Notes: generated from the sequence alone by a model not told the origin. Counted from the first letter of the stretch, positions 2,336-37,152 are shown. The stretch is 64,000 nt of DNA from Dehalococcoides sp. JdFR-54 (GCA_002011475.1 MTNP01000037.1:77246-141245); one strand, 5' to 3'. Translations and numbers: made by a program.

Positions 2336-2354
2336 ATAAAGGGGGTGAGGTCGA

Positions 2355-3990: not shown

Positions 3991-3991
3991 A

Positions 3992-4231: not shown

Positions 4232-4284
4232 CCTCGTCAACCAGGGCCTTTGATTCAGGCATGGCTTCCCGTTGCCACGGCCCG

Positions 4285-20298: not shown

Positions 20299-20955
20299 AT
20301 GGCTGACAGAAACCCCTCTGAAAAGCAAAACCGCGAGGGCTTGCGCGGGGTGTCTGTCTCCGAAGGGGAAAAGAGAAGGCCCGGCGAGCACGGCCTGCTC
20401 CCTGGCCTGTGCCGAGTATGCCAGAGCCCCCATCGCAAGGACTATGAGCGGAGGATGGCTGAGGGGTGGTCTGGCCGCAGGCTGGAGCGATACAGCAGGG
20501 AGATTGGGGAGCCCATCTCGGTGTCCAGCTTCCTGAATCACAGGGAGAAGCACTTCAAGGGGGAGCTGGAGAAGCTCAAGGACGAGCGGATGGAGGAGAT
20601 AGCCAGGAGCCGAATCAGGCTGGGGATGGAGGCCATAGAGGTGCTGAAGTCCAACCTGGAGGTGATGAACAAGGGCAAGGAAGCTCTGGCTAAGGTGTTC
20701 GCTAACCCTGAGGGGCTGTCGGGCACCATGATGGGCAACGCCGCCAGGCTCATGGGCGAGATACGGCTCACCTCGGACGCCCTGGAGGCCAAGCTGGAGA
20801 AGCTGCGGGGCCTGGGCGAGGTGGATGAGGAGGCCCTGGCCTCGGACCTTACCAGGCTCATTGGCCTCCTCTGCCCTGAGTGTCGGGTGCGGGTGGCCGA
20901 GGAGATCGGCCTGGACCCTGGGGACATCGTGAAGACGGCCAGGGGGTTGCTATGA
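20299..20955 (+). CDS. putative terminase small subunit (assigned by position)
   Basis: 218 aa. ATGA overlap with the large terminase start. Coiled-coil C-terminus. Confidence 0.4.
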   Translation: MADRNPSEKQNREGLRGVSVSEGEKRRPGEHGLLPGLCRVCQSPHRKDYERRMAEGWSGRRLERYSREIGEPISVSSFLNHREKHFKGELEKLKDERMEEIARSRIRLGMEAIEVLKSNLEVMNKGKEALAKVFANPEGLSGTMMGNAARLMGEIRLTSDALEAKLEKLRGLGEVDEEALASDLTRLIGLLCPECRVRVAEEIGLDPGDIVKTARGLL

Positions 20956-22274
20956 CCACGGGCTTTGCCCTGCGCCTGGTGAGGGAGAGGCTTGCCCAGG
21001 GCTTCTACGACTCCCTGGTGGTGTTCGCCCGGCATGAGCTGAGCCTGAGGCTCTCGGAAGATCAGCGGCGGCTGGCGGAGTTCCTCCAGGATGTGGAGAA
21101 CCGAAGGGCCATAGTGTCGGCGGGGAGAGGAGCGGGGAAGACGCTGATGGGGGCGGTGCTGGCGGTGTGGTCGGCAACGGCCCTGGCTGAGAGGTTGAGG
21201 AGGCCCTACCAGGTGATGGTCATCGGCGGTACCCAGAAGCAGGCCGACTTCCTCTACGACTACTGCCGCCGCTTCTTCGACCGCTCGCCCTACCTGTCCT
21301 CCCGAATCCGGGGCGAGCCTTTGAAGTCGGAGACCCGCTTCAAGAACGGCTCCCTCATCATGGTGCACGCCGCCTCCCCAGGTGGGGTGAGGCACGCCCA
21401 TGTGGACTGCCTCATCTTCGACGAGGTGGCGGTGGCCCGGGACGACATGGTGCGGGCCTCCTTCTCCATGGTGGACGAAGCTCCCTACCCCAGGATAGTG
21501 CTCCTGTCCACGCCCCACGACCCCATGTCGGTGTTCGTGGCTATCTGGCAGGACGCCGAGCGGGAGGGCTTCAGGAAGTTCAACTGGGACTCCTCCCGCT
21601 GCCCCTGGAAGGACAGGGAGGAGGTGGCGCTGAAGGAGAGCACCCTGTCGAGAGAGCAGTTCACCGTGGAGTATCGGGGCCTCCCCTCCAGCTACGAGAA
21701 CGCCATCTTCAACCTGGGCGACATCAGGGAGTGCCGGGTGAGCCAGAAGCCCAGGCGGGATGGAGATAACCCTGTGGTCATGGGCATTGACTGGGGCTTT
21801 GCCCCCGGGCTTCACGAGACGGTGGTCACGGTGGTGCAGAGGCAGGGCGAGCTCTTCGTGGTGCTGCATGCCGAAAAGATAGAGGGAAGGCCCGAGGAGA
21901 AGCAGGAGCGCATCAAGGCCATCTACTACGAGCTTCGGGCGGAGAGGGCCTTCGCCGACATGAGCCACATCTCCGAGAACCAGCGCTTGGCCGAGGCGGG
22001 GCTCCAGGTGACCCAGGTGCCCTTCCAGAACCGCAAGAAGGAGATGGTCTACCGGGCACAACGGCTGTTCCAGCAGCGCCAGGTAAGGATATTCGACCAG
22101 GAGCTGGAGCTGATAAAGCAGCTCACCCACTACCAGTGGGCGGAGTCCAAGACGGGGAAGCTCACCCCGATGAAGGGGAGGGACGACTTCGTGGACTCTC
22201 TCCTGCTGGCGCTGACGGGGGCGGAGACCTATCACGCCCCTTCGCCGATAAAGGCGGGGAGGTATAGCTGGTGA
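20952..22274 (+). CDS. terL: terminase large subunit
   Basis: Walker A SAGRGAGKT, Walker B LIFDE, C-terminal nuclease-like region. 440 aa. Confidence 0.8.
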   Translation: MTTGFALRLVRERLAQGFYDSLVVFARHELSLRLSEDQRRLAEFLQDVENRRAIVSAGRGAGKTLMGAVLAVWSATALAERLRRPYQVMVIGGTQKQADFLYDYCRRFFDRSPYLSSRIRGEPLKSETRFKNGSLIMVHAASPGGVRHAHVDCLIFDEVAVARDDMVRASFSMVDEAPYPRIVLLSTPHDPMSVFVAIWQDAEREGFRKFNWDSSRCPWKDREEVALKESTLSREQFTVEYRGLPSSYENAIFNLGDIRECRVSQKPRRDGDNPVVMGIDWGFAPGLHETVVTVVQRQGELFVVLHAEKIEGRPEEKQERIKAIYYELRAERAFADMSHISENQRLAEAGLQVTQVPFQNRKKEMVYRAQRLFQQRQVRIFDQELELIKQLTHYQWAESKTGKLTPMKGRDDFVDSLLLALTGAETYHAPSPIKAGRYSW

Positions 22275-23602
22275 GCTGGCTTGACCGCCTGACAGGGAAG
22301 AGACGGGGGCCCAGGGTCCTGGAGAGCCTGGTGCGAGTGGGCACCTATGGCGACGCCCAGGCAGCCGAGGCCCGCCGCCGACCCGAGGAGGGGAAGTGGC
22401 TCACCCGGGTGGACCCGCAGAAGCTGTGCCTGCTCTACATCGTCGAGCCTACCTTCTTCCGGGCGGTGAACACCTACGCCCATATCCTGTCCTCCCTGCC
22501 CTACAGGGTGGAATCGGAGAGCGAGGAGGCAAAGAAAGTAGTAACTGACTTCTGCCAGGGCATCGACCTCCAGGGCAGGATCGAGGAGATAGTGCGCCAC
22601 CAGGGGATCATCGGCAACGCCTTCGCCGAGCTTATCAGGAACGGGGCAGGCCACATCGTTGACCTTCTGGTGGTGGAGAACCCGGAGACCTTCGACTTCA
22701 TCAGGAATGCCTCGGGGGACATCGAGTTCGACCAGGACGGCCTGCCCAGAGGCTACGAGCAGAAGCTGTCAAAGGAGATAAGGGGCAGGCAGTTCTCCAG
22801 GGAGGACATCGTCCACTTCCGCCTGTTCACCGCCCCTGGCGTCTACTGGGGCATCGGCCTCATCGAGCCCCTCTACAAGACGGCGCTGCGCAAGCTCAAC
22901 ATCGAGGAGGCCCTGGCCGAGGTGGCCCACAAGAGGTCGGCCCCCATAGCGGTGTTCAGGATGGGGGTCCTGGAGCCCCAGGAGCGGATGCCCACCGCCC
23001 AGGAGCGCAAGGACCTGGAAGAGATGATGGCCAACCTCAAGAGCCAGAGCTACATCTTCCTGCCTCCCTACATCGGCCTGGAGTTCAAGTCGCCCGAGGG
23101 GATAGAGCGGGTGGTGGAGAGCCTGAAGCACTTCAACGAGCTCATGGCCACCGGGCTGGGGGTGCCCCCTACCATCCTGGGGCTCACCGATACCCCGGTG
23201 GGTGCGGCCAGGTCGGCAGATGTGGCCTTCGAGCGCAATATCAGGGCCTATCTCCGCTCCCTATCTCGCACCTTCGAGCGGGAGGTATTCGCCAGGCTGC
23301 TGGAGCAGGAGGGGATAGAGGCCCGGGTGCATCTCAGGTGGGGAGACCTCTCCGAGCCCGACAAGCTCTCCAGGGCGAGGAGGCTGGGCGTCTACGCCCG
23401 GGCGGGCCTGCTCTCCCCTGACCTCAGGCTGGAGAACTGGATCAGGCAGTACGAAGACCTGCCCGAAAAAGAAGAGGCCAGGGTTGCGCTCTCCGGCGAA
23501 GAGGAGCTTCGTAACCTCATCGGCCAGGAGATGCAGCGTCTGGAGGAGAAGGTTAGGGAGATAGTCAAGCAGGAGCTTAGAGATGAGTGGCAGGACTACT
23601 GA
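22271..23602 (+). CDS. portal protein
   Basis: 443 aa. GTGA overlap with terL. Position and size typical of a portal. Confidence 0.6.
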   Translation: MSWLDRLTGKRRGPRVLESLVRVGTYGDAQAAEARRRPEEGKWLTRVDPQKLCLLYIVEPTFFRAVNTYAHILSSLPYRVESESEEAKKVVTDFCQGIDLQGRIEEIVRHQGIIGNAFAELIRNGAGHIVDLLVVENPETFDFIRNASGDIEFDQDGLPRGYEQKLSKEIRGRQFSREDIVHFRLFTAPGVYWGIGLIEPLYKTALRKLNIEEALAEVAHKRSAPIAVFRMGVLEPQERMPTAQERKDLEEMMANLKSQSYIFLPPYIGLEFKSPEGIERVVESLKHFNELMATGLGVPPTILGLTDTPVGAARSADVAFERNIRAYLRSLSRTFEREVFARLLEQEGIEARVHLRWGDLSEPDKLSRARRLGVYARAGLLSPDLRLENWIRQYEDLPEKEEARVALSGEEELRNLIGQEMQRLEEKVREIVKQELRDEWQDY

Positions 23603-24335
23603 GAAGGTGCCGGAGCTTGAGCTTCTGCCCATATCCCGGAACCAGGCGGCGGCTTTTGTCCGGGAGCACCACTACGCCAGGAAGCTGCCCTCTACCTGCA
23701 AGCTCTACCTGGGCGGCTTCACCAGGGAGGGCCTCATGGCGGTGGCGGTCTGGGGCTATGGGGTGCGTCCCCTGCACACCGCCAGGAAGCTGGTCATGGG
23801 GGCCAGCACCGCCGAATACCTGGAGCTCAACCGCCTCTGCGTCCACGATTCGCTGCCCAGGAACAGCGAGAGCCATTTCCTATCGCTTTGCGTGAAGTGG
23901 ATAGAGCAGAACATGCCCCAGGTGGAGTGGCTCTTCTCCTTCGCCGACGGCATCTACGGCAAGCCGGGCTATGTGTATCAGGCAGCGGGCTGGCTCTGCG
24001 TGGGCAGGATACTCACCGAGAGATATGTCCTCGCCGATGGCACCGTTGTCCATCCCAGGCTGCCCGTCACCCGAAACGGCACCAGAACCTGGGCCTTCAT
24101 GGTGCGCCACTATCCGGGGATCAAGCGCCTCTGGGGATACCAGTTCAAATATCTCAAGCCCATAGGCTCCAGCACCGACAAGAGGCACGTGCTGAGGCGA
24201 TTGCTGGCGTCACCTCAGCCGTATCCGAAACATGGCGACTGCGTGATTTACGAGGCGGTGGAGGGCTCGAGGGTGAGCCGCCGTGTTTCCTTCACGGAGG
24301 GGCAGGTTCGACTCCTGCCCACCGCTCCAGCTTGA
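23583..24335 (+). CDS. Mom-like acyltransferase-fold protein (candidate DNA-modification enzyme)
   Basis: ...ELNRLCVHDSLPRNSESHFLS...LFSFADGIYGKPGYVYQAAGWLCVG resembles the Mom/GNAT-like pattern (SFAD...G..G.vYqAagW). Confidence 0.4.
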   Translation: MSGRTTEKVPELELLPISRNQAAAFVREHHYARKLPSTCKLYLGGFTREGLMAVAVWGYGVRPLHTARKLVMGASTAEYLELNRLCVHDSLPRNSESHFLSLCVKWIEQNMPQVEWLFSFADGIYGKPGYVYQAAGWLCVGRILTERYVLADGTVVHPRLPVTRNGTRTWAFMVRHYPGIKRLWGYQFKYLKPIGSSTDKRHVLRRLLASPQPYPKHGDCVIYEAVEGSRVSRRVSFTEGQVRLLPTAPA

Positions 24336-24354
24336 AAAGCAAGGCCGAATTGCA

Positions 24355-25731
24355 ATGGCAAAGGCAATCGAGGAACTTCAGAAGGAGGCGATAGAGAGGC
24401 TGTCGAAGCAGTTCCATCGGGAGCTTACCCGCGCCTTTCGCACCGCCGCCCACAGGGTAATTGAAGCCCAGCGCAGGGACTGGGGACGAAGCATGGAGCC
24501 CTGGGAGCTGGGCAAGGTGGAGGGCAGTCTCAAGGCGGCGGACAAAGCCCGGGAAGCTTTGCTGAAGGAGCTACAAGCCCTGGTGGATAGGTTTATCCCC
24601 CGGGCCTTCCGTGAGGAGCGCAGAGAGGCCTTCTCCCGGGGCAGGTCGCCTCAGGTGGTTCTTGAAGAAGGGATGAGCTCCCTGCAGGAGCGGCCCCTTA
24701 CCGCCGCCGAGGAGCGGATGGTGCGTGCCCTGACCCGGTTCACCTACGAGACCTACAGGACGGTGGCCGCCGAGTGGCATGGCAGGGTGCGCACCACCAT
24801 CGCCCTGGGGGTGCTCCGGGGCGACGACATGCGCACCGTCTCCCGCAGGATAAGGGAGCAGACAGGAGTTCGCCTCTCCGACGCCGAGAGGATAGCCAGA
24901 ACCGAGACCGCCCGGGTCTCCCAGGCAGCCAGGATGGGGGAATACCAGAAGCGCCGTGTGGAGAAGCTGGACTGGATTCTGGCCGACCGTCCCTGCACCG
25001 TATGTGAGGACATCGCCAGGGGCAGCCCCTACGAGCGTGACAAGGTTCCTGCCCTTCCTGTCCATCCCCATTGCATGTGCGCCGTGGCTCCCGTGATTGA
25101 GGAGTTGCCCGAGCCGCCACCGCCTGAGAAGGACTGGGAGCCGAGAGTGATCAACGCTGGCTACTCCGAGCTGGAGCGGGCCAGGATCAACCGCCTGCTG
25201 GATAAGCTTCCCCAGGAGGACAAGGAGCGAATGATGGGCTACCTCGCCAGCGAGGAGCACTGCCCCGTCATCCTGCGCCCCGAGGACATGAGGCGGCGCC
25301 TGGGCTTCGACGCCGAGGCCAAATACGGCAGGGACTACAGGCCCTACGTGGACTGGGCGGGGCTCTACGAGCCCTCCACCAACCGGGTGTGGGTGCTTCC
25401 CGAATACAGGGACCACGCCCTCGTCCACGAGATAGGGCACCAGTACTACTGGCACGGCGTGTCGGCGGGGAGGCGCAGCAGCCTGGTGCTGAACCGGAAC
25501 TACGAACTCTATCAGAAGGCGAAGGCGGCGGGCAGAGCGGTGACCGACTACGCCCTCACCAACGAGCGGGAGTACTTCGCCGAGGGTGTCAAGTTCTTTA
25601 TCCAGGACCCCCGCCGGCTGCACCAGAGGGATATTGCTATGTATCGCTTCTTGAACGAGCAGGTGTTCCCCGGCACCTACAAGAGGCTGCCCCGGCCAGG
25701 GGCGAAGCTCCAGGAGGTCCAGGTTGGCTGA
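24355..25731 (+). CDS. head morphogenesis (SPP1 gp7/Mu F-like) protein with a C-terminal zinc-metalloprotease-like domain (HEIGH)
   Basis: Position after the portal. C-terminal ALVHEIGHQYYWHG zincin motif. Confidence 0.5.
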   Translation: MAKAIEELQKEAIERLSKQFHRELTRAFRTAAHRVIEAQRRDWGRSMEPWELGKVEGSLKAADKAREALLKELQALVDRFIPRAFREERREAFSRGRSPQVVLEEGMSSLQERPLTAAEERMVRALTRFTYETYRTVAAEWHGRVRTTIALGVLRGDDMRTVSRRIREQTGVRLSDAERIARTETARVSQAARMGEYQKRRVEKLDWILADRPCTVCEDIARGSPYERDKVPALPVHPHCMCAVAPVIEELPEPPPPEKDWEPRVINAGYSELERARINRLLDKLPQEDKERMMGYLASEEHCPVILRPEDMRRRLGFDAEAKYGRDYRPYVDWAGLYEPSTNRVWVLPEYRDHALVHEIGHQYYWHGVSAGRRSSLVLNRNYELYQKAKAAGRAVTDYALTNEREYFAEGVKFFIQDPRRLHQRDIAMYRFLNEQVFPGTYKRLPRPGAKLQEVQVG

Positions 25732-26038
25732 GTATGAGGTGGTAAGGTATCACGGCCATCCCGAGGCGCCTACCCAGGAGCTGGTGGGCAGACTGGTGTG
25801 GGATGCCGAAAAGAAGCAGCTTTCCTACGAAGCCTGGGATGAGAGGCTGGCGCAGCTCCTGGCCGAGGTCAGGCGCAGGCGGGCGGTAAAACGCTTCGCC
25901 CCTGGCCCCGAGCCGGAGCGGGAAGACGTGGTCGTGGACAGCATCGTGGACGCCCCTATGGACGACCCGAAGTTCATCACTTACCTGGACGACTGGCTCG
26001 CCAACTGGGGCTTCAACCTGGTGGAAATGGAGACATGA
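25724..26038 (+). CDS. hypothetical protein
   Basis: 104-aa ORF with 4-nt overlaps. Confidence 0.4.
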   Translation: MAEYEVVRYHGHPEAPTQELVGRLVWDAEKKQLSYEAWDERLAQLLAEVRRRRAVKRFAPGPEPEREDVVVDSIVDAPMDDPKFITYLDDWLANWGFNLVEMET

Positions 26039-27174
26039 TAAGGGTTACTTTCCTGGGCACCAGAGCCGAGGTGGAAATACCTCAGGAGGGCCACGACGAT
26101 CCCCAGTGCCAGGAAGCCCGTCGCCTGGGTAATGACTACTACCATAAGCTGCATTCCTCCCTGCTCATTGAGGCAGAGGGCAGCAGGCTCATGCTCGATG
26201 CCGGGGAGGGGCACGAGGAGATGGTGGCCAGGGTAAAGCCCGACGCCATCCTGGTCACCCATGCCCATCCCGACCACCTCTCCAGAAGGCTGGAAGCCCT
26301 TGAGCCTGCCATCCCCGTCTACATGAGCGAGGATACCGCCGAGGTTATCAAACTGCCCCACGAGCAGGTATTTCCTGAAGACAAGCCCTTTGAGGTGGCG
26401 GGGTTCAAGGTGGTGGCCCATCCCGTTGTCCACTCCCTGGTGGCCCCAGCTGTTTGCTTTAAGGTGTCAAAGGGGGACTTCACCCTGGTCTATGCCCCGG
26501 ATGTGGTCTCCATACCCGACCGCCAGCACTTCCTCAAGGGCGTTGACCTCTACATCGGCGATGGCTCCTCCCTTACCAGGGACATCATCCGCCGCAGGGA
26601 CGATAAGCTCATCGGGCATGCCAGTATGCTCAGGCAGCTTCGCTGGGCAGAGGGGATGAAGCAGGTTCTCTTCACCCATGTGGGGCACCTGAAGAAGACC
26701 GAGGCCGATGTCAACCAGGCCCTGCGCATCGCCTCCGATGGGAGGGCCCGCCTGGCCCGGGACGGGATAAGCCTGGAGTTTGAGAGCCTCCAGGTCACCA
26801 TCGAGACCATTGCCCCGGTTCTGGCTCCAGCTATCCCCACCAGAGCTGAGCCTCAAGACCTTATCCAGGATGCAGAGAGCTACGATGCCTCTGCCCCCAG
26901 GGATGACCAACTCAGGGACGACTGGCGCATCGTCTGCGGCTGGTATGCCACCCTGAAGAGCGGCGGCGACATCAAGTTCGATGAGGCCACCATCGTGGCT
27001 CTGGGGCAGAAAATCCTCAAGGAGCTGCTGCGCCGCAAGCGGAAAGACCCCCTCAGTCTTTACCGCCCACCCCGGGGAGATGAAGGAGTATCCCAGGGAG
27101 CTCTACGAGCGCATCACCAGAGAGTGGGACCCAGAGGACAAAGCCTTCCTGGAGACCGAGCCGGAGGAGCTTGA
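26035..27174 (+). CDS. metallo-beta-lactamase-fold hydrolase (candidate nuclease)
   Basis: LVTHAHPDHL (HxHxDH) and further MBL motifs. The C-terminal ~30 codons overlap the next gene and look low-complexity, so the true stop is uncertain. Confidence 0.55.
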   Translation: MIRVTFLGTRAEVEIPQEGHDDPQCQEARRLGNDYYHKLHSSLLIEAEGSRLMLDAGEGHEEMVARVKPDAILVTHAHPDHLSRRLEALEPAIPVYMSEDTAEVIKLPHEQVFPEDKPFEVAGFKVVAHPVVHSLVAPAVCFKVSKGDFTLVYAPDVVSIPDRQHFLKGVDLYIGDGSSLTRDIIRRRDDKLIGHASMLRQLRWAEGMKQVLFTHVGHLKKTEADVNQALRIASDGRARLARDGISLEFESLQVTIETIAPVLAPAIPTRAEPQDLIQDAESYDASAPRDDQLRDDWRIVCGWYATLKSGGDIKFDEATIVALGQKILKELLRRKRKDPLSLYRPPRGDEGVSQGALRAHHQRVGPRGQSLPGDRAGGA

Positions 27175-30100
27175 GGCTACCACTGAGGGCATGAGCGAAC
27201 TGGAAGAGCTTGCCAGGCAGCCCTTTGGCTCCCCTGGCGGCAAGCTGTGGATGGCACCCCGGATAGCCTCCCTGATACCACCACACAGGATATATGTGGA
27301 GCCCTTTGCCGGGGCTGCCGCCGTCTTCTGGGCCAAGGAGCCGTCTGAGGTGGAGGTGCTGGGCGACATCGACCCCGAGGTGATGTTCGCCTATCGCTTC
27401 ATCCAGAGGGCATCCTCCAAGGAGATAGCCCGGCTCAGGCGCTACGAGTGGCGGCACAGGAGGGACCTGTTTGAGGAGTTGAAGGCAGCCAGACCGAAGG
27501 ACGAGGTGGAGCGCTTCCGTCGTTTCCTCTACCTGCGAAAGGCAAGCTACGGCAGCCGGGGCGTCAACTTCATGGAGGCCAAGCGGGAGCGGGCCATCAG
27601 CCTGGACAGCTTTGAGAGGTGGCAGGAGCGGCTCAAGGGGGTGCACCTGCATACTGGCTCCTATGAGCAACTGCTGGACAGGTATGACGGCCAGGATGCC
27701 TTCTTCTACCTTGATCCCCCATACCCTGGCCACTGGCAGGGGGAGGAGCACGGCTTCACCCAGGAGCAGTGGGATGGCCTCATAGAGAGGCTGAAGAGGC
27801 TCAAGGGTAAGTTCATCCTGTCTCTGTTCAAAGACCTGGCGGGGACGCTGCCCTCTGGCTGGCATACCAGGCGCATCAAGACCCACCGCGCCCTGGGGCA
27901 GGACGATGCAGGCAAGGTGCTCTTCCACTACGAGTACCTGGCGGCCAACTTCCCCCTGGGCGGCAAACTGGAAGCAGAAGACGGACAAGTAGAAGACTTG
28001 CGCTGGGGCGCCAACCAGCCCTTCGGCAGCCCCGCTGGCAAGACCTATCTGGCCAGGCGCATCGCCGCCATGCTGCCTCCCCACAAGACCTATGTGGAGC
28101 CCTTCGCTGGTGGGGCCGCTGTCTTCTGGGCCAAGGAGCCGGTGGAGAGGGAGGTGCTCAACGACATCGACCCCGAGATAGCTTTCGCCTACCGCTTCCT
28201 GAAGAAGATGACCCCGGAGCAGTTCGCCCGCCTCAAGCGCTTCGACTGGGAGCGCCGGCCGGACAAGTTCGAGAAGGTCAAACGCTCAAAGCCCAGGGAC
28301 GAGGTGGAGCGGTTCCATAAGTTCTACTACCTCACCCTGGCCAGCTTTGGCCATGCCCGCAACACCTTTGGCTGGGGCAAGGGCGGCAATGTCATCGACA
28401 TAGACAAGCTGGAGCGCTACACCCAGCGGCTCAAGAACGTGGCCATCCACAACGAAGACTTCGAGCCGGTGGTGAGGCGCTACGATTCGCAGGAGACCGT
28501 ATTCTACCTCGATCCCCCTTATCCGGGCAGGGTGTTCCACGGGCCCCAGTTCACCCTGGAGGACCTGGAGCGGCTGATAAAGGTGCTCAAGGGCATCAAG
28601 GGCAGGTTTGTGCTCAGCCTGGGCACGGAGCATGAGAGGTATCTTCCGGAGTCCTGGTTCGTGAAGCGGGTCAAGGTGCAGCGCAACCTGGTGGACCCCA
28701 GGACGGGGAAGCCCATCCCCTCGGGCTTCGAGATACTGGCCGCCAACTTCACTCCCGGCAGGGAAAGCCTGGAGGCGCTGGAAACCGATGAAGAAGGCGA
28801 GGCCGCGCCCGACGAGGCGATGATCGAGCTCCCCGAAATTACAGACTTCATGGTGATACCCGACTTCATCAGCCTGGTGGGGAGCGCCGTCAAGGGAGAG
28901 GCGCCCAAAGACCTGGACATCCTCATCCGCTCGGCAGCCCGGAGCGAGAGCCTGGAGGTGGCTATCGGGAAGCAGCTTGACCCGGAGAAGCGGGGCTACC
29001 TCCACTTCATCTACGAGCCCGCTGGCCCCCACGACGACTACATCCCTCTGTGGGACCTGGTGGCTTTGAGGAAGCCCGGAATCGAGGTTGTAGAGGTGGG
29101 GCTGAGCAGAGCAAAGGGGCTCGTGCCCGGCAAGCCCTTTACTCCATTAAAGACGGCAGGCGGCTACGGGGAGCTGGAGTTCTCGGTGGACGCCGCCGAC
29201 AAGCTCTGGGAGACCTGGGGCCAGGGATACAAAGACGTGGGCCTCATAGTCCAGGAGAAGTTCGACGGCTACCGGCTCACCCTTCATCGCAAAGGCGACA
29301 GGGTCTTCGCCTTCTCCGAGGATGCCAGGCGAGATATTGTGAGCGCCCTTCCTGGCCTTGAGGAAGACCTCAAGGCCCTACCCGATGGCGACTTCATCCT
29401 GGATTCGGAGCTGCTGCTCTATGCCGAGGAAGCGGTGGAGCTTAATAACCCATACAAGCCCGGCGACAAGATAGAGCGCATGGACATGGCTTCCTTTCTG
29501 GGTAAAAGCCCGGCGGCCAGGTTCCGCGCCCTCTGCCAGGTTTTCGATTGCCTCTACCTGAACGGCGAAGACCTGCACCAGAGGCCCCAGACAGAGAGGC
29601 TGGAGGCGCTGCATAAGCTGCTGAGCCCGGTGGACACCCTCCACCTCAAAGAGGTGGAGAGCAGGCTGGTCCGCAGCAGGGAGGAATTCTTGAAAGCAGT
29701 CAAGTGGGCGGCCTCCAGGCCACACAGCGAAGGGGCCATGGTGAAGGTGGCCGACTCGGACTACCCCCTCACTGGACGCTCCAGCACGATAGCCAAGCTC
29801 AAGAACTTCAAGGAGATAAGGGGCAGGGTGGTCAGTAAGCGGAAGACCGAAGCAGGTGCCTACGTCTATGAGATCGCTCTCTCCGACGGCTCGGTCATCG
29901 GCTCCACCTATGCCACCAGGCTGGAGGCGGAGGTGGGCGACATCCTGGAGGTGCGCGCCGCCGAGATTAAGGTAAAGGAGGAGGATGGCAGGAGGGTCTT
30001 CACCTGGGATAACCCCATCGTGGTCAGCATAAAGCCAAAGGGAACGGCCCTCACCACCCCGGAGCAGGCCGAGGCGATGGCCAGGAAGCGCAGGGGCATG

Positions 30101-30934
30101 ACGGCAGAGGAAGAAGGCGAGACCAGAAGTGAAGCAGCGGAGAGGTTCTGGCGGGAGAACTGGCACAAGTCCTTCCCGCCCTCAGGCAAAGGGGAGTTCG
30201 TTTACCATCACCACTGGCGGGGGCTATCGGAGGAGGAGACAAAGCTATCTGAGGATGAGCTTCTCAAGACCGACCACTCGGTGCATGGTGACCTGAGGTT
30301 GCAGTTTTCCGACGAAGCCCTCTTTGGCTTCACCGTTTTCCTGGGCACCACCGATGAGATGGGGGAAGCTGGCGGAGACCGGTTGGCGAACCTGCCGCCT
30401 GACGATAAGCTCCAGGGGGCCTGGAAGCTGCAGCAGCCTATCGCCTGGCTCAAGGTAGGAAGGGAGAAGCCCCTGGTCACCGCGCCTGGTGAGGTGGGAG
30501 CTACCTCGGAGAAGTATTCCAAGTTCTTCGCCGAGGACTGGGGCACCTACGAGATAGGCGTATGGCGGGAGCACTTCTTCGAGCTTTTCCTTCATGGCAG
30601 GAAGCTCAAGGGGCGCTACACCATCCAGTATGCCCCACTGGGTGGCAGGAGGGTATGGCTCATCGGCAAGCCCAAGGACCAGACGCCCTACGCTGAGGCT
30701 CACGAGCTTGAGGACGTCGTTAAAGAGCTGAAGGGCAAAGGACAGAGATACCTGGTGTGGGCCAGGCCGGGCGAGGAGCCCAAACTAATCGAGGTTGGAA
30801 AGGCCGAACAGCTAACCTGTCCCAAATGCGGGGAGACCCTGGACCCGGGAACCACAAGGCTGGCAAAGCTGAGCGATGATTTCCACGATGTGTTCCGCTG
30901 TGCTCATTGTAGGCACATTTTTAGTCCAAGTTGA
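27080..30934 (+). CDS. multidomain fusion: two tandem Dam-like (D12-class) N6-adenine methyltransferase domains + ATP-dependent DNA ligase (KFDGYR) + LigD-like 3'-phosphoesterase domain + C-terminal zinc ribbon
   Basis: FGSPGGKLWMAPRIASLIPPH...FYLDPPYPG (nt ~27220-27760) and FGSPAGKTYLARRIAAMLPPH...FYLDPPYPG (nt ~28020-28540). Ligase motif I LIVQEKFDGYR at ~29245. PE-like HHHWRG...HGDLRL...DWGTYEIG...LFLHGRKLKGRY at 30180-30700. CPKCG...CAHC at the end. Confidence 0.75.
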   Translation: MKEYPRELYERITREWDPEDKAFLETEPEELEATTEGMSELEELARQPFGSPGGKLWMAPRIASLIPPHRIYVEPFAGAAAVFWAKEPSEVEVLGDIDPEVMFAYRFIQRASSKEIARLRRYEWRHRRDLFEELKAARPKDEVERFRRFLYLRKASYGSRGVNFMEAKRERAISLDSFERWQERLKGVHLHTGSYEQLLDRYDGQDAFFYLDPPYPGHWQGEEHGFTQEQWDGLIERLKRLKGKFILSLFKDLAGTLPSGWHTRRIKTHRALGQDDAGKVLFHYEYLAANFPLGGKLEAEDGQVEDLRWGANQPFGSPAGKTYLARRIAAMLPPHKTYVEPFAGGAAVFWAKEPVEREVLNDIDPEIAFAYRFLKKMTPEQFARLKRFDWERRPDKFEKVKRSKPRDEVERFHKFYYLTLASFGHARNTFGWGKGGNVIDIDKLERYTQRLKNVAIHNEDFEPVVRRYDSQETVFYLDPPYPGRVFHGPQFTLEDLERLIKVLKGIKGRFVLSLGTEHERYLPESWFVKRVKVQRNLVDPRTGKPIPSGFEILAANFTPGRESLEALETDEEGEAAPDEAMIELPEITDFMVIPDFISLVGSAVKGEAPKDLDILIRSAARSESLEVAIGKQLDPEKRGYLHFIYEPAGPHDDYIPLWDLVALRKPGIEVVEVGLSRAKGLVPGKPFTPLKTAGGYGELEFSVDAADKLWETWGQGYKDVGLIVQEKFDGYRLTLHRKGDRVFAFSEDARRDIVSALPGLEEDLKALPDGDFILDSELLLYAEEAVELNNPYKPGDKIERMDMASFLGKSPAARFRALCQVFDCLYLNGEDLHQRPQTERLEALHKLLSPVDTLHLKEVESRLVRSREEFLKAVKWAASRPHSEGAMVKVADSDYPLTGRSSTIAKLKNFKEIRGRVVSKRKTEAGAYVYEIALSDGSVIGSTYATRLEAEVGDILEVRAAEIKVKEEDGRRVFTWDNPIVVSIKPKGTALTTPEQAEAMARKRRGMTAEEEGETRSEAAERFWRENWHKSFPPSGKGEFVYHHHWRGLSEEETKLSEDELLKTDHSVHGDLRLQFSDEALFGFTVFLGTTDEMGEAGGDRLANLPPDDKLQGAWKLQQPIAWLKVGREKPLVTAPGEVGATSEKYSKFFAEDWGTYEIGVWREHFFELFLHGRKLKGRYTIQYAPLGGRRVWLIGKPKDQTPYAEAHELEDVVKELKGKGQRYLVWARPGEEPKLIEVGKAEQLTCPKCGETLDPGTTRLAKLSDDFHDVFRCAHCRHIFSPS

Positions 30935-31042: not shown

Positions 31043-33529
31043 CTACGATACTGACACTGACGCTTTCCAAATGCTTGTTGGAATTGTTACCCTTTCTTTC
31101 TTACCTACTGCAGCAGGATCCTTCACTAAATAGATATTGGGGTTCTCTGGTATTTCAGACACCACACAGAGGTAGAAGGAGTTCCTGTATTTGTCCGCCG
31201 TCTCTGTCTCGTTGCGATCTAGCTCAACATCTCGATCGTGGCTTAGTCCCTTGACTTCTATACGCATAGTTTCACCGCTGTGAGTCTCCGCTTCTATATC
31301 GTAACCGAAGTTCCTTTTATCCACTGGTTTGACGTTTCTATAGGCCGCTTTTAGTTTTTCTATAGCATAATTCATGGCAAATTCTTCCACGCCATTATCA
31401 GGGTCATCCTTGATTCCTCCGTTTTTGAGGAATTGCCGCCATGCTCTTAACTGGTCGTCATTCGTAACGCCAGTAAGATAGTCCACGCTCAGAAAATTGA
31501 GGCCAGATACATATTGCTGACGAGTTTCCCAGTCTCTCTCAGGTTTGAACTCCTTGGGGAAAAACACTTCTCTCGCTGCTCGCACCTCGCCTTGCTTTGT
31601 AAGAACCCAGAATTCCAAGCCTCTCCCGACTTCCTCTCCAAGGATTCGCTGGCATTGAATGGTATATAGTAGCAGGTCGCGTGGCGTAGGTTTGGGTGCA
31701 GTGGTTAAAATCCTGGGTAACAAAGCCTCTTTACAGACTGTGTTCGCGTCTAAGACCGGCACACCGGTCAATCCTGTGAGGAAGCCTCTAATATTTTTCC
31801 GTTCTTCTTCGCTCTTGGCTCTCCCCAGAATATCCGGGTGTAATATTGACCTAGACTTTTGCAGGGTTTCGGTTACATCCTTCAGAATGGGATCAGAGGG
31901 CTGGAAGTCGGGGAGCCATACATTCCTGCCTTCAAGAAGCTCTCCCTCTGCTGTCAACACGATCCTTGAGCTCCAGTAACCCTCCTGGTACCAATAGCCT
32001 TTTCTGCTATAGCTGCCACGCGGGTGCGTCTGGAGCCATAAATATAAGCTCCTGAACCACTCAGCCGCAGCAGAGCTTTTACATTTTTCCTCGAGGAATG
32101 CTTCGTTACTCAGTAGCCCCAGCCGATCTACTTTCTTGAAAGGTGACGAATCTGGTTCTACTACATCGGGAGCTATCACCTCCAAATCAGGTTGCCCACC
32201 CATAGCTGCCGCTATTTGGTCTTTGCTCAAGATACCCATACGTACAAGGTCATCAATGGCTTTCTGATCCTCGTTAACTTTTACTGCTTGTTTAGGCTTC
32301 GTCCAGCCTCCCTCTGCGGTGGGCACACACGTATCTTCTTCCAGATAGGTTTCTACTGGCTCAATCAGTTTAGGCCCGAATAGCTTGTCATGGGCTTCAA
32401 GGCCCTTCGACTTTGTGAACTCAAAGGCAGGCAGAAACTGGTACTTCCATGTCTTGTGATTCTTAAAACAGTTTATGGCCTCCTTGCATAGGTCAGCCAC
32501 CTGCTCTACTAGCCAGTGATTCCATTTCGCTTCATAGTTGATGGCCTCTCGTCCTGGCTGAACAAGAAAATCAGCTTGTATCGGAAACTTAGCGCCACTT
32601 CTTGCCTCACCCAACGGCAAAAAGGAGTATACGCCTCCATACATTGCCCCAGCCTGTAAAGGAGCGAGATTGCCTTCATTGTCAAGTGCAAAAGCTATGG
32701 CTATTTCTCTGCGAGTTACATTGGCTCTATATTCCTGTGTAAGCCTGTCTGCCTTCACCCAATCCGGCACTGAGCAAACTCGCCGGAAGAACCTGAACCT
32801 TTGCTCCTGCCCATTATGCCTGAGAGTTGTGATACCGTCCTCGCTTTCTCCGATGTTCTCCAGAGTCCAGGTTCGTCCGTATACCTCATCTACAATCTCT
32901 ATTCGCTTTAACCAGCGAAGGAATAGATATAGCTCGGTGCTCAGCCTTGTTACTTCCTGAAGCAGGGCTGAATAATAGGTCTCCTCCCTAAAAGGGATGA
33001 TGAACGTTGTCCTCTCGTGTTCGACGGCTTCCGAGGGTTGGTCAATCCAGATGGGTAAGACGTGCCATGGTGTGCGACTGGGGTCCTCCCACTCTTTATG
33101 GTTTCTGTCGAATTTGAATTGGAAGCCACCAGAATATACCTCAGGGCAATCAGTGACTTTAAAAACGGATTTGAATCCTATGCCCAGATATCCCAATGTG
33201 CCTTTTTCCGGCTTCTTTGATGACCTGATGCCACAGAGCGCCTTTACATCGTCTTGGTTAAAGGGACGGCCATTATGTATCACCTTTGCTCTATGCTGGT
33301 TAATTCTTACTTCGAACACACCGAGAGTCTCTAAACCCAAACCAGCATCCTCGGCATTCTGAAGTAGCTCAAGGACAAACCCAGAACTTCTCGTAAATAT
33401 GACTTGGGCGATCAATTTTAGAGCGTTAATATAATCGTCCCATATCCTTGTCCCTTTAGATGCTTTAATCTCCTCCTGGATAGTGTCTATAATTCTCTTT
33501 GCCTCGCGAGGATTCAAACCTACCGCCAT
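31043..33529 (-). CDS. GHKL-type (sacsin/MORC-like) ATPase with a C-terminal DUF3883/PD-(D/E)xK-like domain; low-GC moron
   Basis: N-terminal VLELLQNAEDAG (HATPase_c motif). C-terminal ...YDIEAETHSGETMRIEVKGL (D...E.K). Opposite strand to the flanking phage genes. AT-rich. Confidence 0.55.
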   Translation of the reverse strand: MAVGLNPREAKRIIDTIQEEIKASKGTRIWDDYINALKLIAQVIFTRSSGFVLELLQNAEDAGLGLETLGVFEVRINQHRAKVIHNGRPFNQDDVKALCGIRSSKKPEKGTLGYLGIGFKSVFKVTDCPEVYSGGFQFKFDRNHKEWEDPSRTPWHVLPIWIDQPSEAVEHERTTFIIPFREETYYSALLQEVTRLSTELYLFLRWLKRIEIVDEVYGRTWTLENIGESEDGITTLRHNGQEQRFRFFRRVCSVPDWVKADRLTQEYRANVTRREIAIAFALDNEGNLAPLQAGAMYGGVYSFLPLGEARSGAKFPIQADFLVQPGREAINYEAKWNHWLVEQVADLCKEAINCFKNHKTWKYQFLPAFEFTKSKGLEAHDKLFGPKLIEPVETYLEEDTCVPTAEGGWTKPKQAVKVNEDQKAIDDLVRMGILSKDQIAAAMGGQPDLEVIAPDVVEPDSSPFKKVDRLGLLSNEAFLEEKCKSSAAAEWFRSLYLWLQTHPRGSYSRKGYWYQEGYWSSRIVLTAEGELLEGRNVWLPDFQPSDPILKDVTETLQKSRSILHPDILGRAKSEEERKNIRGFLTGLTGVPVLDANTVCKEALLPRILTTAPKPTPRDLLLYTIQCQRILGEEVGRGLEFWVLTKQGEVRAAREVFFPKEFKPERDWETRQQYVSGLNFLSVDYLTGVTNDDQLRAWRQFLKNGGIKDDPDNGVEEFAMNYAIEKLKAAYRNVKPVDKRNFGYDIEAETHSGETMRIEVKGLSHDRDVELDRNETETADKYRNSFYLCVVSEIPENPNIYLVKDPAAVGKKERVTIPTSIWKASVSVS

Positions 33530-34050: not shown

Positions 34051-34308
34051 TTATACCGCCACATACTCACGGATGTCCACCTGGACGCCAGCGCGGGCAG
34101 CTTCTTCTGCGGTCTGAAGGAGCCGCTCCGTGATTTCCTCCTCTACATACTCCTCCCCGCAGTTCGGGCAGACCCTCGCTGGCACACCCTTAATCACCAG
34201 GGTGGCGCCATCCCGCTCCAGGGTCACTGTAGCCTTGCCGGGACGGGTCTCCGCTTGCCTACAAATAACGCACTTCATTGTCTCCTCCTTCTGAACCCGG
34301 GCTCCCAT
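34051..34308 (-). CDS. YgiT/MqsA-type zinc-finger antitoxin
   Basis: MKCVICRQAETRPGKATVTLERDGATLVIKGVPARVCPNCGEEY matches the YgiT zinc-ribbon pattern. Overlaps the upstream toxin gene. Confidence 0.55.
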   Translation of the reverse strand: MGARVQKEETMKCVICRQAETRPGKATVTLERDGATLVIKGVPARVCPNCGEEYVEEEITERLLQTAEEAARAGVQVDIREYVAV

Positions 34309-34559
34309 TGGGTCAGGTCAGGTTCATATACAGTGATTACAATAGTTTCCTGACCCTCCATGTTCTCCGCAGCTACCACATGGATAGGGCGTGATCCACG
34401 CCATCCGAGCACCAAGTGGCTCGGATAGGGAGTGTCGTTGGGATAATCCTCAATCACCTCTCCTGTCGATAGCACGTGGCGGACATCATCCACACTGATT
34501 CGGCGCTGAAACATACGCTGGATGGCGTGTACACGGAAAACCAGTCGGTCAAAGGTCAC
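34275..34559 (-). CDS. DUF4258-family toxin
   Basis: HAIQRMFQRRISVDDVRHVLSTGEVIEDYPNDTPYPSHLVLGWRGSRPIHVVAA...IVITVYEPD matches DUF4258. It is the toxin-first partner of the zinc-finger antitoxin. Confidence 0.55.
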   Translation of the reverse strand: MTFDRLVFRVHAIQRMFQRRISVDDVRHVLSTGEVIEDYPNDTPYPSHLVLGWRGSRPIHVVAAENMEGQETIVITVYEPDLTQWEPGFRRRRQ

Positions 34560-34809
34560 ACCCTTGCTCCCCCGAGGAGGTCGATCCGGCGATCACCGGC
34601 AAGGGATGGCCCAGTTTGAAGCCGACCAGAATCCAGTCTTCCAGGGTAGAGCGCAGTTCATCCTGGCACTCCCGCAGGGTGGTGCCGAAAGCCACCACGT
34701 CCTTGCACTGAGGAATTCGCCCTGAAAAGGTGCTGTCCACCAGCTTATCGTAGACTGCCTGGGACGAAGCCTGCTCTACATAGTCGGTAAGGACCAATTT
34801 CACACCCAT
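34549..34809 (-). CDS. HicB-like (UPF0150) antitoxin-fold protein; no HicA partner recognised
   Basis: ...IPQCKDVVAFGTTLRECQDELRSTLEDWIL resembles the HicB N-terminal domain. Confidence 0.35.
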   Translation of the reverse strand: MGVKLVLTDYVEQASSQAVYDKLVDSTFSGRIPQCKDVVAFGTTLRECQDELRSTLEDWILVGFKLGHPLPVIAGSTSSGEQGCDL

Positions 34810-35683: not shown

Positions 35684-35724
35684 GCTTCACACACATCCAT
35701 CACTCAGCTTCGCCAGGAAGTCAA
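35684..35724 (-). promoter_or_regulatory. conserved leftward promoter-like motif, copy A (gcttcacacacatccatcactc + ggaagtcaa)
   Basis: 22-nt block identical to 37996-38017. On the minus strand it reads TTGACTTCC...GAGTGATGGATGTGTG. Confidence 0.45.
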
Positions 35725-36487
35725 TAGCCTTCGAGGAGACTTGGTGAGGTCTCCGCTCGGCTAGCTCAAACCCTGCCAGCCCTTTGAGGCAGTTGTCCCT
35801 GGTGGCCTGGTAGCCGCAGCAGGGCTTGAGCGCCCTTACCTCAACATCCTCGCCCAGGACCGACCTGAGCAGGTCGGCCTGGGAGCCGAACCAGAGGGCG
35901 CCCCGCTCCATGTCCTTCGCCACCACCAGGGGCCGGTGGTTACGGCAGAGCCAGATGGCGGGCAGGCGCAGGTCGGCGAAGGCTATGGCGTAATCCCCCC
36001 TGAGCCTGGCCAGGGCTTTCCTGATCCCCCTGGGTCGCACCCTGCCGTTGCTATGGCGGCGCAGCAGCCGGAAGATCACCTCCGAGTCCACCTCCGCCGT
36101 AGCCCCCACCTCTGCTCTAAGCTGCCGATAGTTGTAGATGACGCCGTTGTGGACGCCGAGGATGGGCCCGGCCAGCAGGGGATGGTTGTTGCGGTTGTCG
36201 GCGGGGTCGCCATGAGTCGCCCACCGGGTGTGGCCCACCACGCCGACGGTGTCGTTGTCCACGGCGTCCAGCAGCTGCCAGAATTGGGGCTGCGCCACCA
36301 GCCTGGAGGCGGGGCCAGGCTGCTTGAGGTATTTCGCCACGCCTTGCTTGAGCACGAAGGCCCCCGCTGCATCCCTGCCCCTGATCTCGGTGGCTGCCAG
36401 CAGGGTGGCGAAGTCCTCCCGGATGCCCTCCAGCTCCTGCTCGCTCCTGTTTCGCCTGTCAAGAACGAATCCTGCTATTCCGCACAT
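35687..36487 (-). CDS. class-II (Ntn) glutamine amidotransferase domain protein
   Basis: Begins MCGIAGF (Cys2 nucleophile). ...GHTRWATHG..., NHPL. Start set at the ATG giving MCGIAG. Confidence 0.6.
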   Translation of the reverse strand: MCGIAGFVLDRRNRSEQELEGIREDFATLLAATEIRGRDAAGAFVLKQGVAKYLKQPGPASRLVAQPQFWQLLDAVDNDTVGVVGHTRWATHGDPADNRNNHPLLAGPILGVHNGVIYNYRQLRAEVGATAEVDSEVIFRLLRRHSNGRVRPRGIRKALARLRGDYAIAFADLRLPAIWLCRNHRPLVVAKDMERGALWFGSQADLLRSVLGEDVEVRALKPCCGYQATRDNCLKGLAGFELAERRPHQVSSKAIDFLAKLSDGCV

Positions 36488-36897
36488 GGTGCGCCTCCAT
36501 CGTAAAAGAGATATTTGCCATCCTGGACCTCCCGGGTGCTGAACACCCTGGAGCACATCCTGACCGAAGGCGTGTTGCTCTGCGCCACCAGCGACCTGAG
36601 CTGGCATCCCCTGGCGGCGGCCAGCTCCTTCTTGGCTTTCAGCAGGGCGGTGCCGATGCCCCGGTTCCTGAAGTCCCGCCGCACCACGGTGATGGAGTAT
36701 TTGCTATGCCCATTGGGGCAGGCCGTAAAGCTCAGGCCCACCAGCTCACCGTCGATGCGGTATTCCAGCAGGATGTCGCCCTCCGAGCCTCCCGCCTTGT
36801 AGTAGTCGAAGCTTTTCTGCCTTATGTGGCGGTCGCCGTTGGCCCGGATGAAGCCCAGGTGCTCTGGGCAGACCTGGCTAACCCTGGCAATCTCCAT
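36475..36897 (-). CDS. GNAT-family N-acetyltransferase
   Basis: VVRRDFRNRGIGTALL (motif A). Start at MEIARV. 13-nt overlap with the amidotransferase gene. Confidence 0.55.
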   Translation of the reverse strand: MEIARVSQVCPEHLGFIRANGDRHIRQKSFDYYKAGGSEGDILLEYRIDGELVGLSFTACPNGHSKYSITVVRRDFRNRGIGTALLKAKKELAAARGCQLRSLVAQSNTPSVRMCSRVFSTREVQDGKYLFYDGGAPCAE

Positions 36898-37150: not shown

Positions 37151-37152
37151 CT

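Follow-up and report, generated by a model that had tools for sequence, protein, structure and literature searches.

Polyvalent proteins of phages and conjugative elements were described by Iyer, Burroughs, Anand, de Souza and Aravind in 2017, with DarB of phage P1 as the archetype (PMC5512222). The phage versions are encoded among virion genes near MuF and zincin domains, and delivery from the virion together with the DNA has been proposed for proteins such as P1 DarB (PMC5512222). Their published methyltransferases are of the gamma class, similar to EcoKI and TaqI, and occur with SNF2 helicases and LPD36. The description mentions no ATP-dependent DNA ligase, LigD-type 3'-phosphoesterase (PE), metallo-beta-lactamase (MBL) or XkdF domain, and nucleotidyltransferases of the polymerase beta type appear only in the versions of conjugative elements (PMC5512222). 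Here we analysed a prophage locus in a 64,000-nucleotide stretch of Dehalococcoides sp. JdFR-54 (GCA_002011475.1, MTNP01000037.1:77246-141245), which is referred to as the window. In our reading the locus was ancestrally one polyvalent protein of about 1632 amino acids (aa) that would methylate phage DNA, heal and seal DNA ends and probably be associated with the capsid; we assign a probability of roughly 0.55 to this reading. The ancestral order of domains is an MBL domain, a helical linker, two methyltransferases of the D12 class, a nucleotidyltransferase-like (NT-like) domain, a ligase with an adenylation domain and a putative OB domain, a LigD-type PE domain and a zinc ribbon.

The window protein resembles the polyvalent class in several respects. 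Disparate catalytic domains are joined in one chain (MBL, two methyltransferases, NT-like, ligase and PE), the gene has a late or virion gene setting beside a MuF and zincin-like peptidase, as also found in the related loci L001, L002, L007, L008 and L010, and the predicted adenine methylation of DNA would serve anti-restriction. Moreover, the related locus L009 encodes a methyltransferase and a ligase fused to an ADP-ribosyltransferase toxin domain, which is a hallmark of the class (PMC5512222). In contrast to the published gamma-class enzymes, both methyltransferases of the window are of the D12/Dam class. The signature module of LPD36, gamma methyltransferase and SWI2/SNF2 is not present in the window protein, which has no helicase domain. 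As judged from sequence, the protein belongs to the polyvalent class by its architecture and its context, without the signature module.

A second described system is LigD, the ligase of bacterial non-homologous end joining (NHEJ), which combines polymerase (POL), PE and ligase (LIG) domains and has a counterpart in stand-alone archaeal PE enzymes. Similarly, the window protein joins an ATP-dependent ligase to a healing domain of the PE fold with an H...HxDxR site, and the domain order is variable. However, a minimal nucleotidyltransferase-like domain of ~100 aa takes the place of the AEP polymerase, the PE domain has an 18-aa insert, the gene is part of a head module and its relatives are usually fused to a prohead protease. 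The window protein is predicted to work like LigD. We do not regard it as a LigD orthologue, because the polyprotein has no AEP polymerase domain, no Ku homologue was found among the scanned open reading frames (ORFs) of the prophage in a scan that was not exhaustive, and the scores are far below the cutoffs of the NCBIfam LigD equivalogs (TIGR02776, 56.8 bits versus 373; TIGR02779, 55.7 bits versus 227.75). Phages Corndog and Omega depend on LigD-type joining for the circularisation of their genomes (Pitcher 2006, as cited in PMC12848934).

Among deposited phage and virus genomes the archaeal virus ANMV-1 (KP703175) provides the sole counterpart of the ligase-PE half. Its protein AJP62006 shares the NT-ligase-OB-PE core with the window protein, with a BLASTP E of 2e-40 across 680 aa, and its gene directly follows the portal gene. 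It differs from the window protein in its length of 866 aa and in the absence of methyltransferase and MBL domains, and it is uncharacterised and annotated merely as 'ATP-dependent DNA ligase'. The neighbouring ANMV-1 gene at 1913-3193, deposited as 'MutT-like phage hydrolase' (AJP62005), matches Phage_portal_3 with E 3e-22 and probably encodes the portal protein.

African swine fever virus (ASFV) has a base-excision repair set consisting of a minimal Pol X with palm and thumb, a dedicated ATP-dependent ligase and an AP endonuclease. The prophage likewise encodes a palm-thumb Pol X, whose 156 aa are comparable in size to ASFV Pol X, plus its own ATP-dependent ligase. The repair enzymes of ASFV, a eukaryotic virus, are the products of separate genes, with no PE, methyltransferase or linkage to a capsid module. 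Tandem N6-adenine methyltransferase modules of the DPPY type are known from M.FokI of a cellular type IIS restriction-modification system, where each presumably modifies a different strand of an asymmetric site; unlike the two modules of the window, they are not fused to repair enzymes. All component folds are known; their combination, the linkage to a head module and protease and the breadth of the family appear not to have been described in the literature searched. Searches for XkdF, for ANMV-1 with ligase and for LigD with virion returned no description of this architecture.

Reading frame of the locus

Residue numbers refer to the 1317-aa ORF 26981-30934 and all coordinates to the window. 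This plus-strand ORF is uninterrupted over 3,954 nucleotides and encodes 1317 aa with the first ATG as start; the alternative starts ATG 27080 and ATG 27191 would yield 1284 and 1247 aa, respectively. The MBL ORF (26035-27174, plus strand, 379 aa) overlaps the reading from ATG 27080 by 95 nucleotides. An earlier inspection of the sequence, hereafter the original prediction, had reported a single ORF of ~1285 aa with an overlap of ~95 nucleotides with an MBL gene. Both values were reproduced, and all motifs quoted at that time were located in the translated ORF 26981-30934.

In the closest relatives P0002 (79% identity), P0003 (from a Dehalococcoidia metagenome-assembled genome, MAG) and P0083, the MBL domain lies in-frame ahead of the methyltransferases. 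P0003 and P0083 are continuous across the junction and read ...KILKELLRRKRK[S/N]PSVFT[P/A][R/H]PG[Q/E]MKEH..., and the window translates to ...KILKELLRRKRKDP in frame 1, whereas its frame 2 gives (T)PSVFTAHPGEMKEY. In the DNA, the region of the C5 run is CGGAAAGACCCCCTCAGTC in the window and CGGAAGAGCCCGTCAGTC in the second related prophage L001, and the comparison of GACCCCCTCAGTC in the window with AGCCCGTCAGTC in L001 reveals one additional C in the window. Removal of one C from the run results in a single 1632-aa ORF without internal stop, reading ...RRKRKDPSVFTAHPGEMKEY.... Since the MBL domain is in-frame in P0002, P0003 and P0083 and a single C sets the window apart, the MBL gene is, by comparison of the sequences, one half of an ancestral ORF of ~1632 aa that this C has split, and the 1284-aa gene is the other half. 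The suspicion of a frameshift fusion in the overlap (27080-27174) was thus confirmed by the read-through of P0003 and P0083 and by the extra C, and the MBL domain, which had been taken for a separate upstream gene, instead belongs to the same ancestral ORF, as its N-terminus set off by the frameshift.

The extra C may stem from an erroneous consensus or from a mutation of recent date, or it may be a +1 slip site that is tolerated. CCC_C is a context prone to +1 slippage. Programmed +1 frameshifting is not favoured, since the CUC codon next to CCC_C is not a stop and all relatives compared (3/3) have an ordinary continuous ORF. If the insertion is genuine, the gene might be split or decaying in a defective prophage, and its two products, an MBL protein that ends in 42 out-of-frame aa and the remaining 1284-aa part, would be made separately or not at all. 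We consider this explanation doubtful. It would agree with the frameshift being present in both deposited records, as the identical sequence is found in the NCBI MAG contig DUEO01000001.1 (GCA_011170395.1; proteins HEX77142 and HEX77141), with the lack of a well-spaced Shine-Dalgarno sequence (GGGGAG abuts ATG 27080 and GAGGGC abuts ATG 27191) and with a second related prophage that carries an intact fusion on the same MAG contig. However, the window and DUEO01000001.1 are 100% identical over 23.9 kb and may therefore not be independent; both records possibly derive from the same reads, so that a consensus error is possible, and the site is slippage-prone. Moreover, the 3.9-kb ORF and the MBL ORF are otherwise intact, and any inactivation would thus be very recent.

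As the source is a MAG, unrelated genes could also have been joined chimerically by an artefact of assembly or gene calling. This is extremely improbable, because the same multi-domain ORFs were recovered from many contigs that are independent of one another and represent different samples and lineages, and the open 3.9-kb frame has a uniform GC content at third codon positions (GC3) of ~0.8 along its length.

Domains of the protein

The two tandem D12 methyltransferases of the original prediction are borne out by MethyltransfD12 (PF02086; 145 bits versus 22, over two stretches), by TIGR00571 (161.1 bits versus a cutoff of 114.85) and by paired motifs. These comprise FGSPGGK and FGSPAGK, the S-adenosylmethionine (AdoMet) motif as EPFAGAAAVF and EPFAGGAAVF, and DPPYPG in each module. 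The modules share 49% identity with each other (BLASTP E 3e-83).

The MBL domain matches Lactamase_B_2 (PF12706) with 49.3 bits against a gathering threshold (GA) of 27, carries the HxHxDH-type motif as HAHPDH and has PDB 6b9v as a match in the structure database (E 1e-8). It is placed nearest to phosphodiesterases of the PhnP/RNase Z type, and with 49 bits against a cutoff of 272 for TIGR03307 it is not a PhnP equivalog. A helical segment of the pattern L..WH..LH....[ED]LV..H..IV.E...R was observed between the catalytic domains of many family members, at times twice per protein. It is found in the linker behind the MBL domain of the window and in N-termini or linkers of P0003, P0009, P0010 and P0024, and might serve for spacing, docking or cleavage.

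Upstream of the ligase lies an NT-like domain that the earlier domain list had missed. This conserved domain of ~100 aa has the motif residues G634-S635, D644 and D646, resembles the minimal nucleotidyltransferases of the MNT/CCA-head type and reaches a predicted local distance difference test score (pLDDT) above 90 in the core of the model; we regard it as a candidate MNT-like minimal nucleotidyltransferase domain. In an hhalign comparison of the NT profile with the small Pol X of the prophage, the GS...DxD motif alone was aligned with a probability of 13%, and we claim no homology between the two. For the ligase, DNA_ligase_A_M (PF01068) scores 78.1 bits versus 26.2, and motifs I (K760-F-D-G-Y-R), III (LDSEL), IIIa (FDCLYLNGEDL), IV (EGAMVK) and V (KLKNFK) are in register with the archaeal DNA ligase 9dfa (E 5e-9). 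Accordingly, the predicted ATP-dependent ligase with its KFDGYR motif stands, as the alignment to 9dfa supports KxDG. The following OB-like segment of the window protein has no match to Pfam DNA_ligase_A_C.

For the C-terminal region, searches with Pfam, PHROGs and PDB by sequence only gave sub-threshold matches to LigD_N and to the archaeal PE structure 5dmp (E 0.07-0.3), and the precomputed PF13298 match in the relative P0010 is flagged 'weak'. The PE assignment therefore needed structure prediction. An AlphaFold2 model from an alignment of 20 homologues had a mean pLDDT of 86.5. In Foldseek against PDB all seven matches with E <= 1e-3 were LigD PE structures (3p43, 3n9b, 5dmp, 3n9d, 3p4h, 2lj6), with E 2e-6 to 4e-4 and TM(target) 0.57-0.77, and all remaining matches had E >= 0.05. 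The motifs quoted originally (HHHWRG...HGDLRL...GTYE...LHGRKLKGRY) are present in the ORF, and SvHgDlRle of the PE profile aligned to HLHYDLRLE of 5dmp. H1078, H1102, D1104 and R1106 (H33/H57/D59/R61 in the domain alignment) are invariant across divergent members. They are candidate counterparts of PE residues with described roles (two histidines that bind metal, an aspartate, and an arginine that binds phosphate), namely H42/H48/D50/R52 in PaePE and H36/H42/D44/R46 in MbaPE (PMC3082917). An insert of ~18 aa separates the first and the second histidine in the window protein, and some relatives have the canonical H-x5-H spacing. In the model, the fold and the core site are PE-like. Nevertheless, the domain probably forms a distinct branch of the PE superfamily, because equivalents of the second catalytic histidine and tyrosine were not located and an invariant lysine and tryptophan (alignment columns K104 and W111) occupy this region instead. 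The LigD-like 3'-phosphoesterase of the original prediction thus holds by its fold and its invariant H...HxDxR site, but not by the Pfam threshold. The zinc ribbon holds as probable from its CxxC pairs (CPKC...CAHC) and the Pfam matches; this tail is common to the window protein and P0002 only, and takes the position of the XkdF protease domain of most relatives.

The same domains might constitute an RNA repair enzyme, in which the MBL domain would act as 2',3'-cyclic phosphodiesterase, the PE domain as 3'-phosphatase and the NT-like domain in CCA addition or tailing, and the ligase would restore tRNAs cut by anticodon nucleases of the host, comparable to T4 Pnkp/Rnl. PhnP and RNase Z, the nearest relatives of the MBL domain, process cyclic phosphates and tRNA 3' ends, the NT-like domain resembles MNT/CCA-head enzymes, and 2H phosphoesterase domains (PF13563) were identified in the relatives P0069 and P0089. 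However, the ligase is of the DNA type (PF01068) with an OB-like region and not of the Rnl type, no 5'-kinase domain was detected, and the fused partners are DNA methyltransferases and, in the relatives P0072 and L008, UDG domains. Furthermore, LigD PE enzymes work on DNA 3' ends (PMC3082917). RNA repair is hence quite improbable.

Family and genomic context

A search with the PE-domain profile against 1.84 billion representative sequences (clusters at 50% identity) identified 1,377 cluster representatives at E <= 1e-3 and 1,001 at E <= 1e-10. In a PE-seeded census of the 139 top-ranking new representatives, which have a median length of 1014 aa, an NT-like domain was found in 100, a ligase in 97, the OB segment, which lies alongside the ligase domain, in 96, XkdF in 90, MBL in 22 and a D12 methyltransferase in eight. 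NT-LIG-OB-PE-XkdF is the commonest architecture (41/139). These counts indicate that the conserved unit is a LigD-like heal-and-seal core, which is usually fused to a prohead protease. The MBL and Dam-type methyltransferase domains are thus optional additions, and the window protein reads as an elaborate member in which the zinc ribbon replaces XkdF. A role of XkdF as a peptidase in head processing has been suggested (PMC7824862).

About a third of the 120 best full-length matches join methyltransferase, NT-like, ligase and PE domains in variously permuted orders, which argues for a functional rather than a historical linkage. Most of the others are methyltransferase tandems or triplets, the majority of them with an XkdF-type protease domain (PF14550). 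The architecture had been considered undescribed in the original prediction. The combination was indeed not found in the literature searched, but it is not a one-off, as its domains recur in permuted orders. A tblastn search of 50,697 deposited phage genomes gave no match covering >=80% of the full protein and methyltransferase matches only. In public records the family is labelled only "DNA adenine methylase", "MBL fold metallo-hydrolase", "XkdF-like protease" or "DNA ligase".

Synteny of the head module extends to seven further loci of different lineages (L001, L002, L005, L006, L007, L008 and L010). L001, L002-L004, L007, L008 and L010 repeat the arrangement portal, (Mom), MuF, (small ORFs), polyprotein, scaffold/capsid. 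In L006 (Bacillota) and ANMV-1 (L005) the polyprotein has the same position relative to the portal as in the window, without an annotated MuF. The XkdF-bearing polyprotein of L006 lies between the portal gene and a 352-aa ORF followed by the capsid gene, and no other protease is annotated there. This head-module setting and the association with XkdF, which together with the NT-like domain tell most about the protein, had been missed originally. L011 (DUEO01000001.1 345942-369796, corresponding to window 17080-40934) represents the window locus itself in the NCBI MAG and not a further locus. L001, on the same contig (105831-130510), shares ~75% nucleotide identity with the window over the head genes; it contains an intact MBL-MT-MT-ligase ORF (P0003, 1559 aa; MT, methyltransferase), and behind it lies another ORF of 685 aa, in which LigD_N matches faintly. 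Upstream in L001 are DarT-like and ADP-ribosylglycohydrolase genes. In the closest relative (L002/L003) an 806-aa ORF in the terminase position (3817-6237) carries a LAGLIDADG_3 domain, which suggests an intein or homing endonuclease insertion in the terminase gene.

Because the core is fused to XkdF in most relatives, at the place of the prohead-protease gene, the family is probably loaded into procapsids and delivered with the DNA. The main alternative is a late DNA-maturation enzyme that remains unpackaged, methylating the DNA in the manner of Mom and phage Dam enzymes and sealing nicks and gaps of concatemers in the cytoplasm before or during packaging, with the head position reflecting timing only. 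Progeny DNA is classically methylated before it is packaged, and nicks or gaps would stall the terminase motor. In the window, Mom as a late DNA modifier is encoded in the same operon, and the protein has no XkdF, with a separate 369-aa protease- or scaffold-like ORF preceding the capsid gene. The lack of XkdF and the presence of Mom make this alternative credible for the window member. Against it stand the covalent fusion of the core to XkdF in 90 of the 139 representatives and its occupation of the sole protease slot seen in L006, both of which fit poorly with a purely cytoplasmic role across the whole family, and we therefore regard it as possible but rather unlikely.

Prophage and neighbouring genes

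The element is predicted to be a prophage of ~50 kb that derives from a temperate tailed phage and lies next to proBA in its Dehalococcoidia host (Table 1). The polyprotein gene is part of its Mu-type head module, which includes terminase, portal, Mom, MuF-zincin, scaffold and capsid genes. The label 'giant phage' of the original prediction was rejected, since proBA and the serine recombinase bound the element at its left and it ends before ~55 kb. The MuF-zincin gene is located two genes upstream of the polyprotein gene. The Peptidase_M90 match of its zincin domain is borderline (25.9 bits versus GA 26.2). The 104-aa ORF lies in between, and its stop codon overlaps the MBL start codon. No Pfam or PHROG match was obtained for the 369-aa ORF that precedes the capsid gene, and it is not similar to the L006 scaffold.

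Table 1. Coordinates of the polyprotein gene, its parts and the other prophage and flanking features in the window.
Feature	Position	Strand	Remarks
Polyprotein (MBL to zinc ribbon)	26035-30934	+	
MBL-fold phosphodiesterase domain (PhnP/RNase Z-like)	26035-26829	+	HAHPDH motif; Pfam Lactamase_B_2, PDB 6b9v
Helical inter-domain linker across frame switch	26830-27217	+	kept in P0003, P0083, P0069, P0079 (phmmer census; P0003/P0083 alignment)
C5 homopolymer	27048-27052	+	one-base insertion, +1 frameshift: MBL ORF (frame 1) versus methyltransferase-ligase ORF (frame 2)
D12-class N6-adenine DNA methyltransferase module 1	27218-27967	+	DPPY aa 245-248; PF02086, phrog_56, TIGR00571; PDB M.DpnII/Dam matches
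D12-class N6-adenine DNA methyltransferase module 2	28016-28762	+	DPPY aa 511-514; Pfam best stretch 353-547
Minimal Pol-beta-type nucleotidyltransferase-like (NT) domain, putative	28814-29116	+	aa 612-712; motif G[SG]-x9-13-DxD, then GP...PLxDLV
ATP-dependent DNA ligase adenylation domain	29117-29809	+	PF01068, phrog_114
Putative OB-fold domain of ligase	29810-30055	+	aligns to ANMV-1 ligase ORF; conserved ~80 aa
LigD-type 3'-phosphoesterase (PE) fold domain	30158-30775	+	~18-aa helical insert; AF2 model and Foldseek
CxxC...CxxC zinc-ribbon-like C-terminal tail and stop	30788-30934	+	weak Pfam zinc-ribbon matches, E ~0.007; low pLDDT
proB, proA (host flank)	903-3629		
Large serine recombinase	4285-5994	-	
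Sigma factor, mini Pol X, AEP primase, UvrD helicase, RusA, PD-(D/E)XK nuclease, N6/N4 methyltransferase	after recombinase, to ~18.1 kb		
Minimal Pol X polymerase, 156 aa	8536-9006	+	palm and thumb domains only; Pfam DNA_pol_B_thumb E 5e-18; T. thermophilus Pol X residues 175-315, E 8e-16
AEP primase, TOTE/PriCT-type	10555-12234		gene separate from polyprotein
N6_N4-type DNA methyltransferase, 686 aa	16026-18086	+	5' of terminase gene
Terminase	20880-22274		
Mu-type portal	22271-23602		
Mom	23583-24335	+	
MuF-like minor head protein fused to zincin (HEIGH) metallopeptidase-like domain	24283-25731	+	Phage_Mu_F 31.2 bits; phrog_115; TIGR01641
Conserved 104-aa ORF between MuF and polyprotein	25724-26038	+	phrog_17348, function unknown; same place in L001, L002, L011
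Variable minus-strand cassette	~31.0-38.0 kb	-	
Scaffold/protease-like ORF, 369 aa	39981-41090		
Capsid	41359-42444		tail genes downstream
Tyrosine integrase	54227-55150	-	
N6_Mtase with HSDR_N domain, 893 aa	55619-58300		
Cytidine-deaminase-NACHT/NB-ARC-TPR (STAND-type) protein, 907 aa	60597-63320		

Together with the 686-aa N6_N4 methyltransferase, Mom and the two D12 modules, the prophage encodes at least four DNA-modifying activities. A minus-strand cassette of GATase, (GNAT) and Amidoligase_2 genes (35687-37977) is kept between the polyprotein and capsid genes in the window, L001 and L002, and together with Mom it suggests DNA hypermodification. Directly downstream of the polyprotein gene, a low-GC gene at 31043-33529 (minus strand) encodes an 828-aa protein whose N-terminus is HATPase-like of the sacsin type and whose C-terminus is of the NOV_C (DUF3883-like) kind. 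Small MqsA-antitoxin-like, DUF4258 and UPF0150 genes resembling toxin-antitoxin pairs come next (34051-34809, minus strand). L001 and L002 have other cargo in place of these genes. A low-GC moron (GC3 0.47) at 18639-19727 (plus strand) encodes a TPR protein with a TIR effector domain of the CAP12/Pycsar type (PF10137, E 1.5e-24), and the 344-aa ORF before the mini Pol X gene (7487-8521) has no detectable homologue. The right end (54227-63320), where the GC content falls to ~0.50, resembles a defence island.

Discussion

According to the reading that we prefer, the polyprotein gene would be co-transcribed with the head genes, which succeed one another as portal, Mom, MuF-zincin, 104-aa ORF, polyprotein, scaffold and capsid. 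Its methyltransferase modules would introduce N6-methyladenine in two motifs or in both strands of an asymmetric motif and shield the phage DNA from restriction. The MBL and PE domains would strip 3'-blocking groups (3'-phosphate, cyclic phosphate or 3'-ribonucleotides), the NT-like domain may add nucleotides, and the ligase would seal the resulting 3'-OH/5'-P nick or join ends. These four domains would thereby form a LigD-like heal-and-seal kit for the phage genome, serving end joining, circularisation or the repair of nuclease damage, and the 156-aa Pol X of the prophage could supply gap filling. The UDG domains of relatives and the mini Pol X point to DNA repair. The originally suggested role in counter-defence or DNA repair is plausible and fits the concept of polyvalent proteins (PMC5512222).

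Several observations weigh against this reading. The frameshift may signal a decaying gene. No capsid-targeting signal was identified in the window protein and no XkdF domain was found by tblastn of the window, so that its own packaging is extrapolated from relatives. Mom is a late-acting, non-packaged DNA modifier, and as it is encoded in the same operon, a position in the head module alone is no proof of incorporation into the virion. At the level of the domains, the NT-like assignment is based on weak fold scores plus a single motif, and Pfam LigD_N (PF13298) stays below its gathering score (16.7 bits versus 31.1) and covers the C-terminal half of the PE domain only. Moreover, the family alignment contains no conserved His-Pro...Tyr corresponding to the second catalytic histidine and tyrosine (H84/Y88 in PaePE, H78/Y82 in MbaPE). 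The lack of a Ku homologue among the scanned ORFs belongs here as well.

A more far-reaching and tentative proposal is that the NT-ligase-OB-PE core is loaded into the procapsid, in most cases by way of its fusion to the prohead protease, and ejected with the genome as a pre-charged enzyme. In the host it would circularise the incoming DNA or mend the cuts and nicks that host nucleases have made in it, and in the case of the window protein the methyltransferases would be co-delivered and mark this DNA. If true, the ejected core would represent a counter-defence that travels in the virion and works by 'repair the damage', as well as an end-joining system that belongs to the phage and does without Ku, and roughly a thousand lineages of uncultivated bacterial and archaeal phages would have this heal-and-seal kit in common.

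For annotation, the MBL gene and the 1284-aa gene of the MAG are to be read as one frameshifted ORF. The compact natural fusions of methyltransferase, ligase and end-healing domains are of possible use as reagents. Phage counter-defence is usually told as avoidance or inhibition of nucleases. A ligase with 3'-end healing that is linked to the capsid would add a third strategy, namely repair on arrival, or would alternatively allow the phage genome to self-circularise without host ligase. The results further extend the LigD phosphoesterase superfamily into viruses with a distinct predicted variant of the active site, in a large family across bacterial and archaeal viruses.

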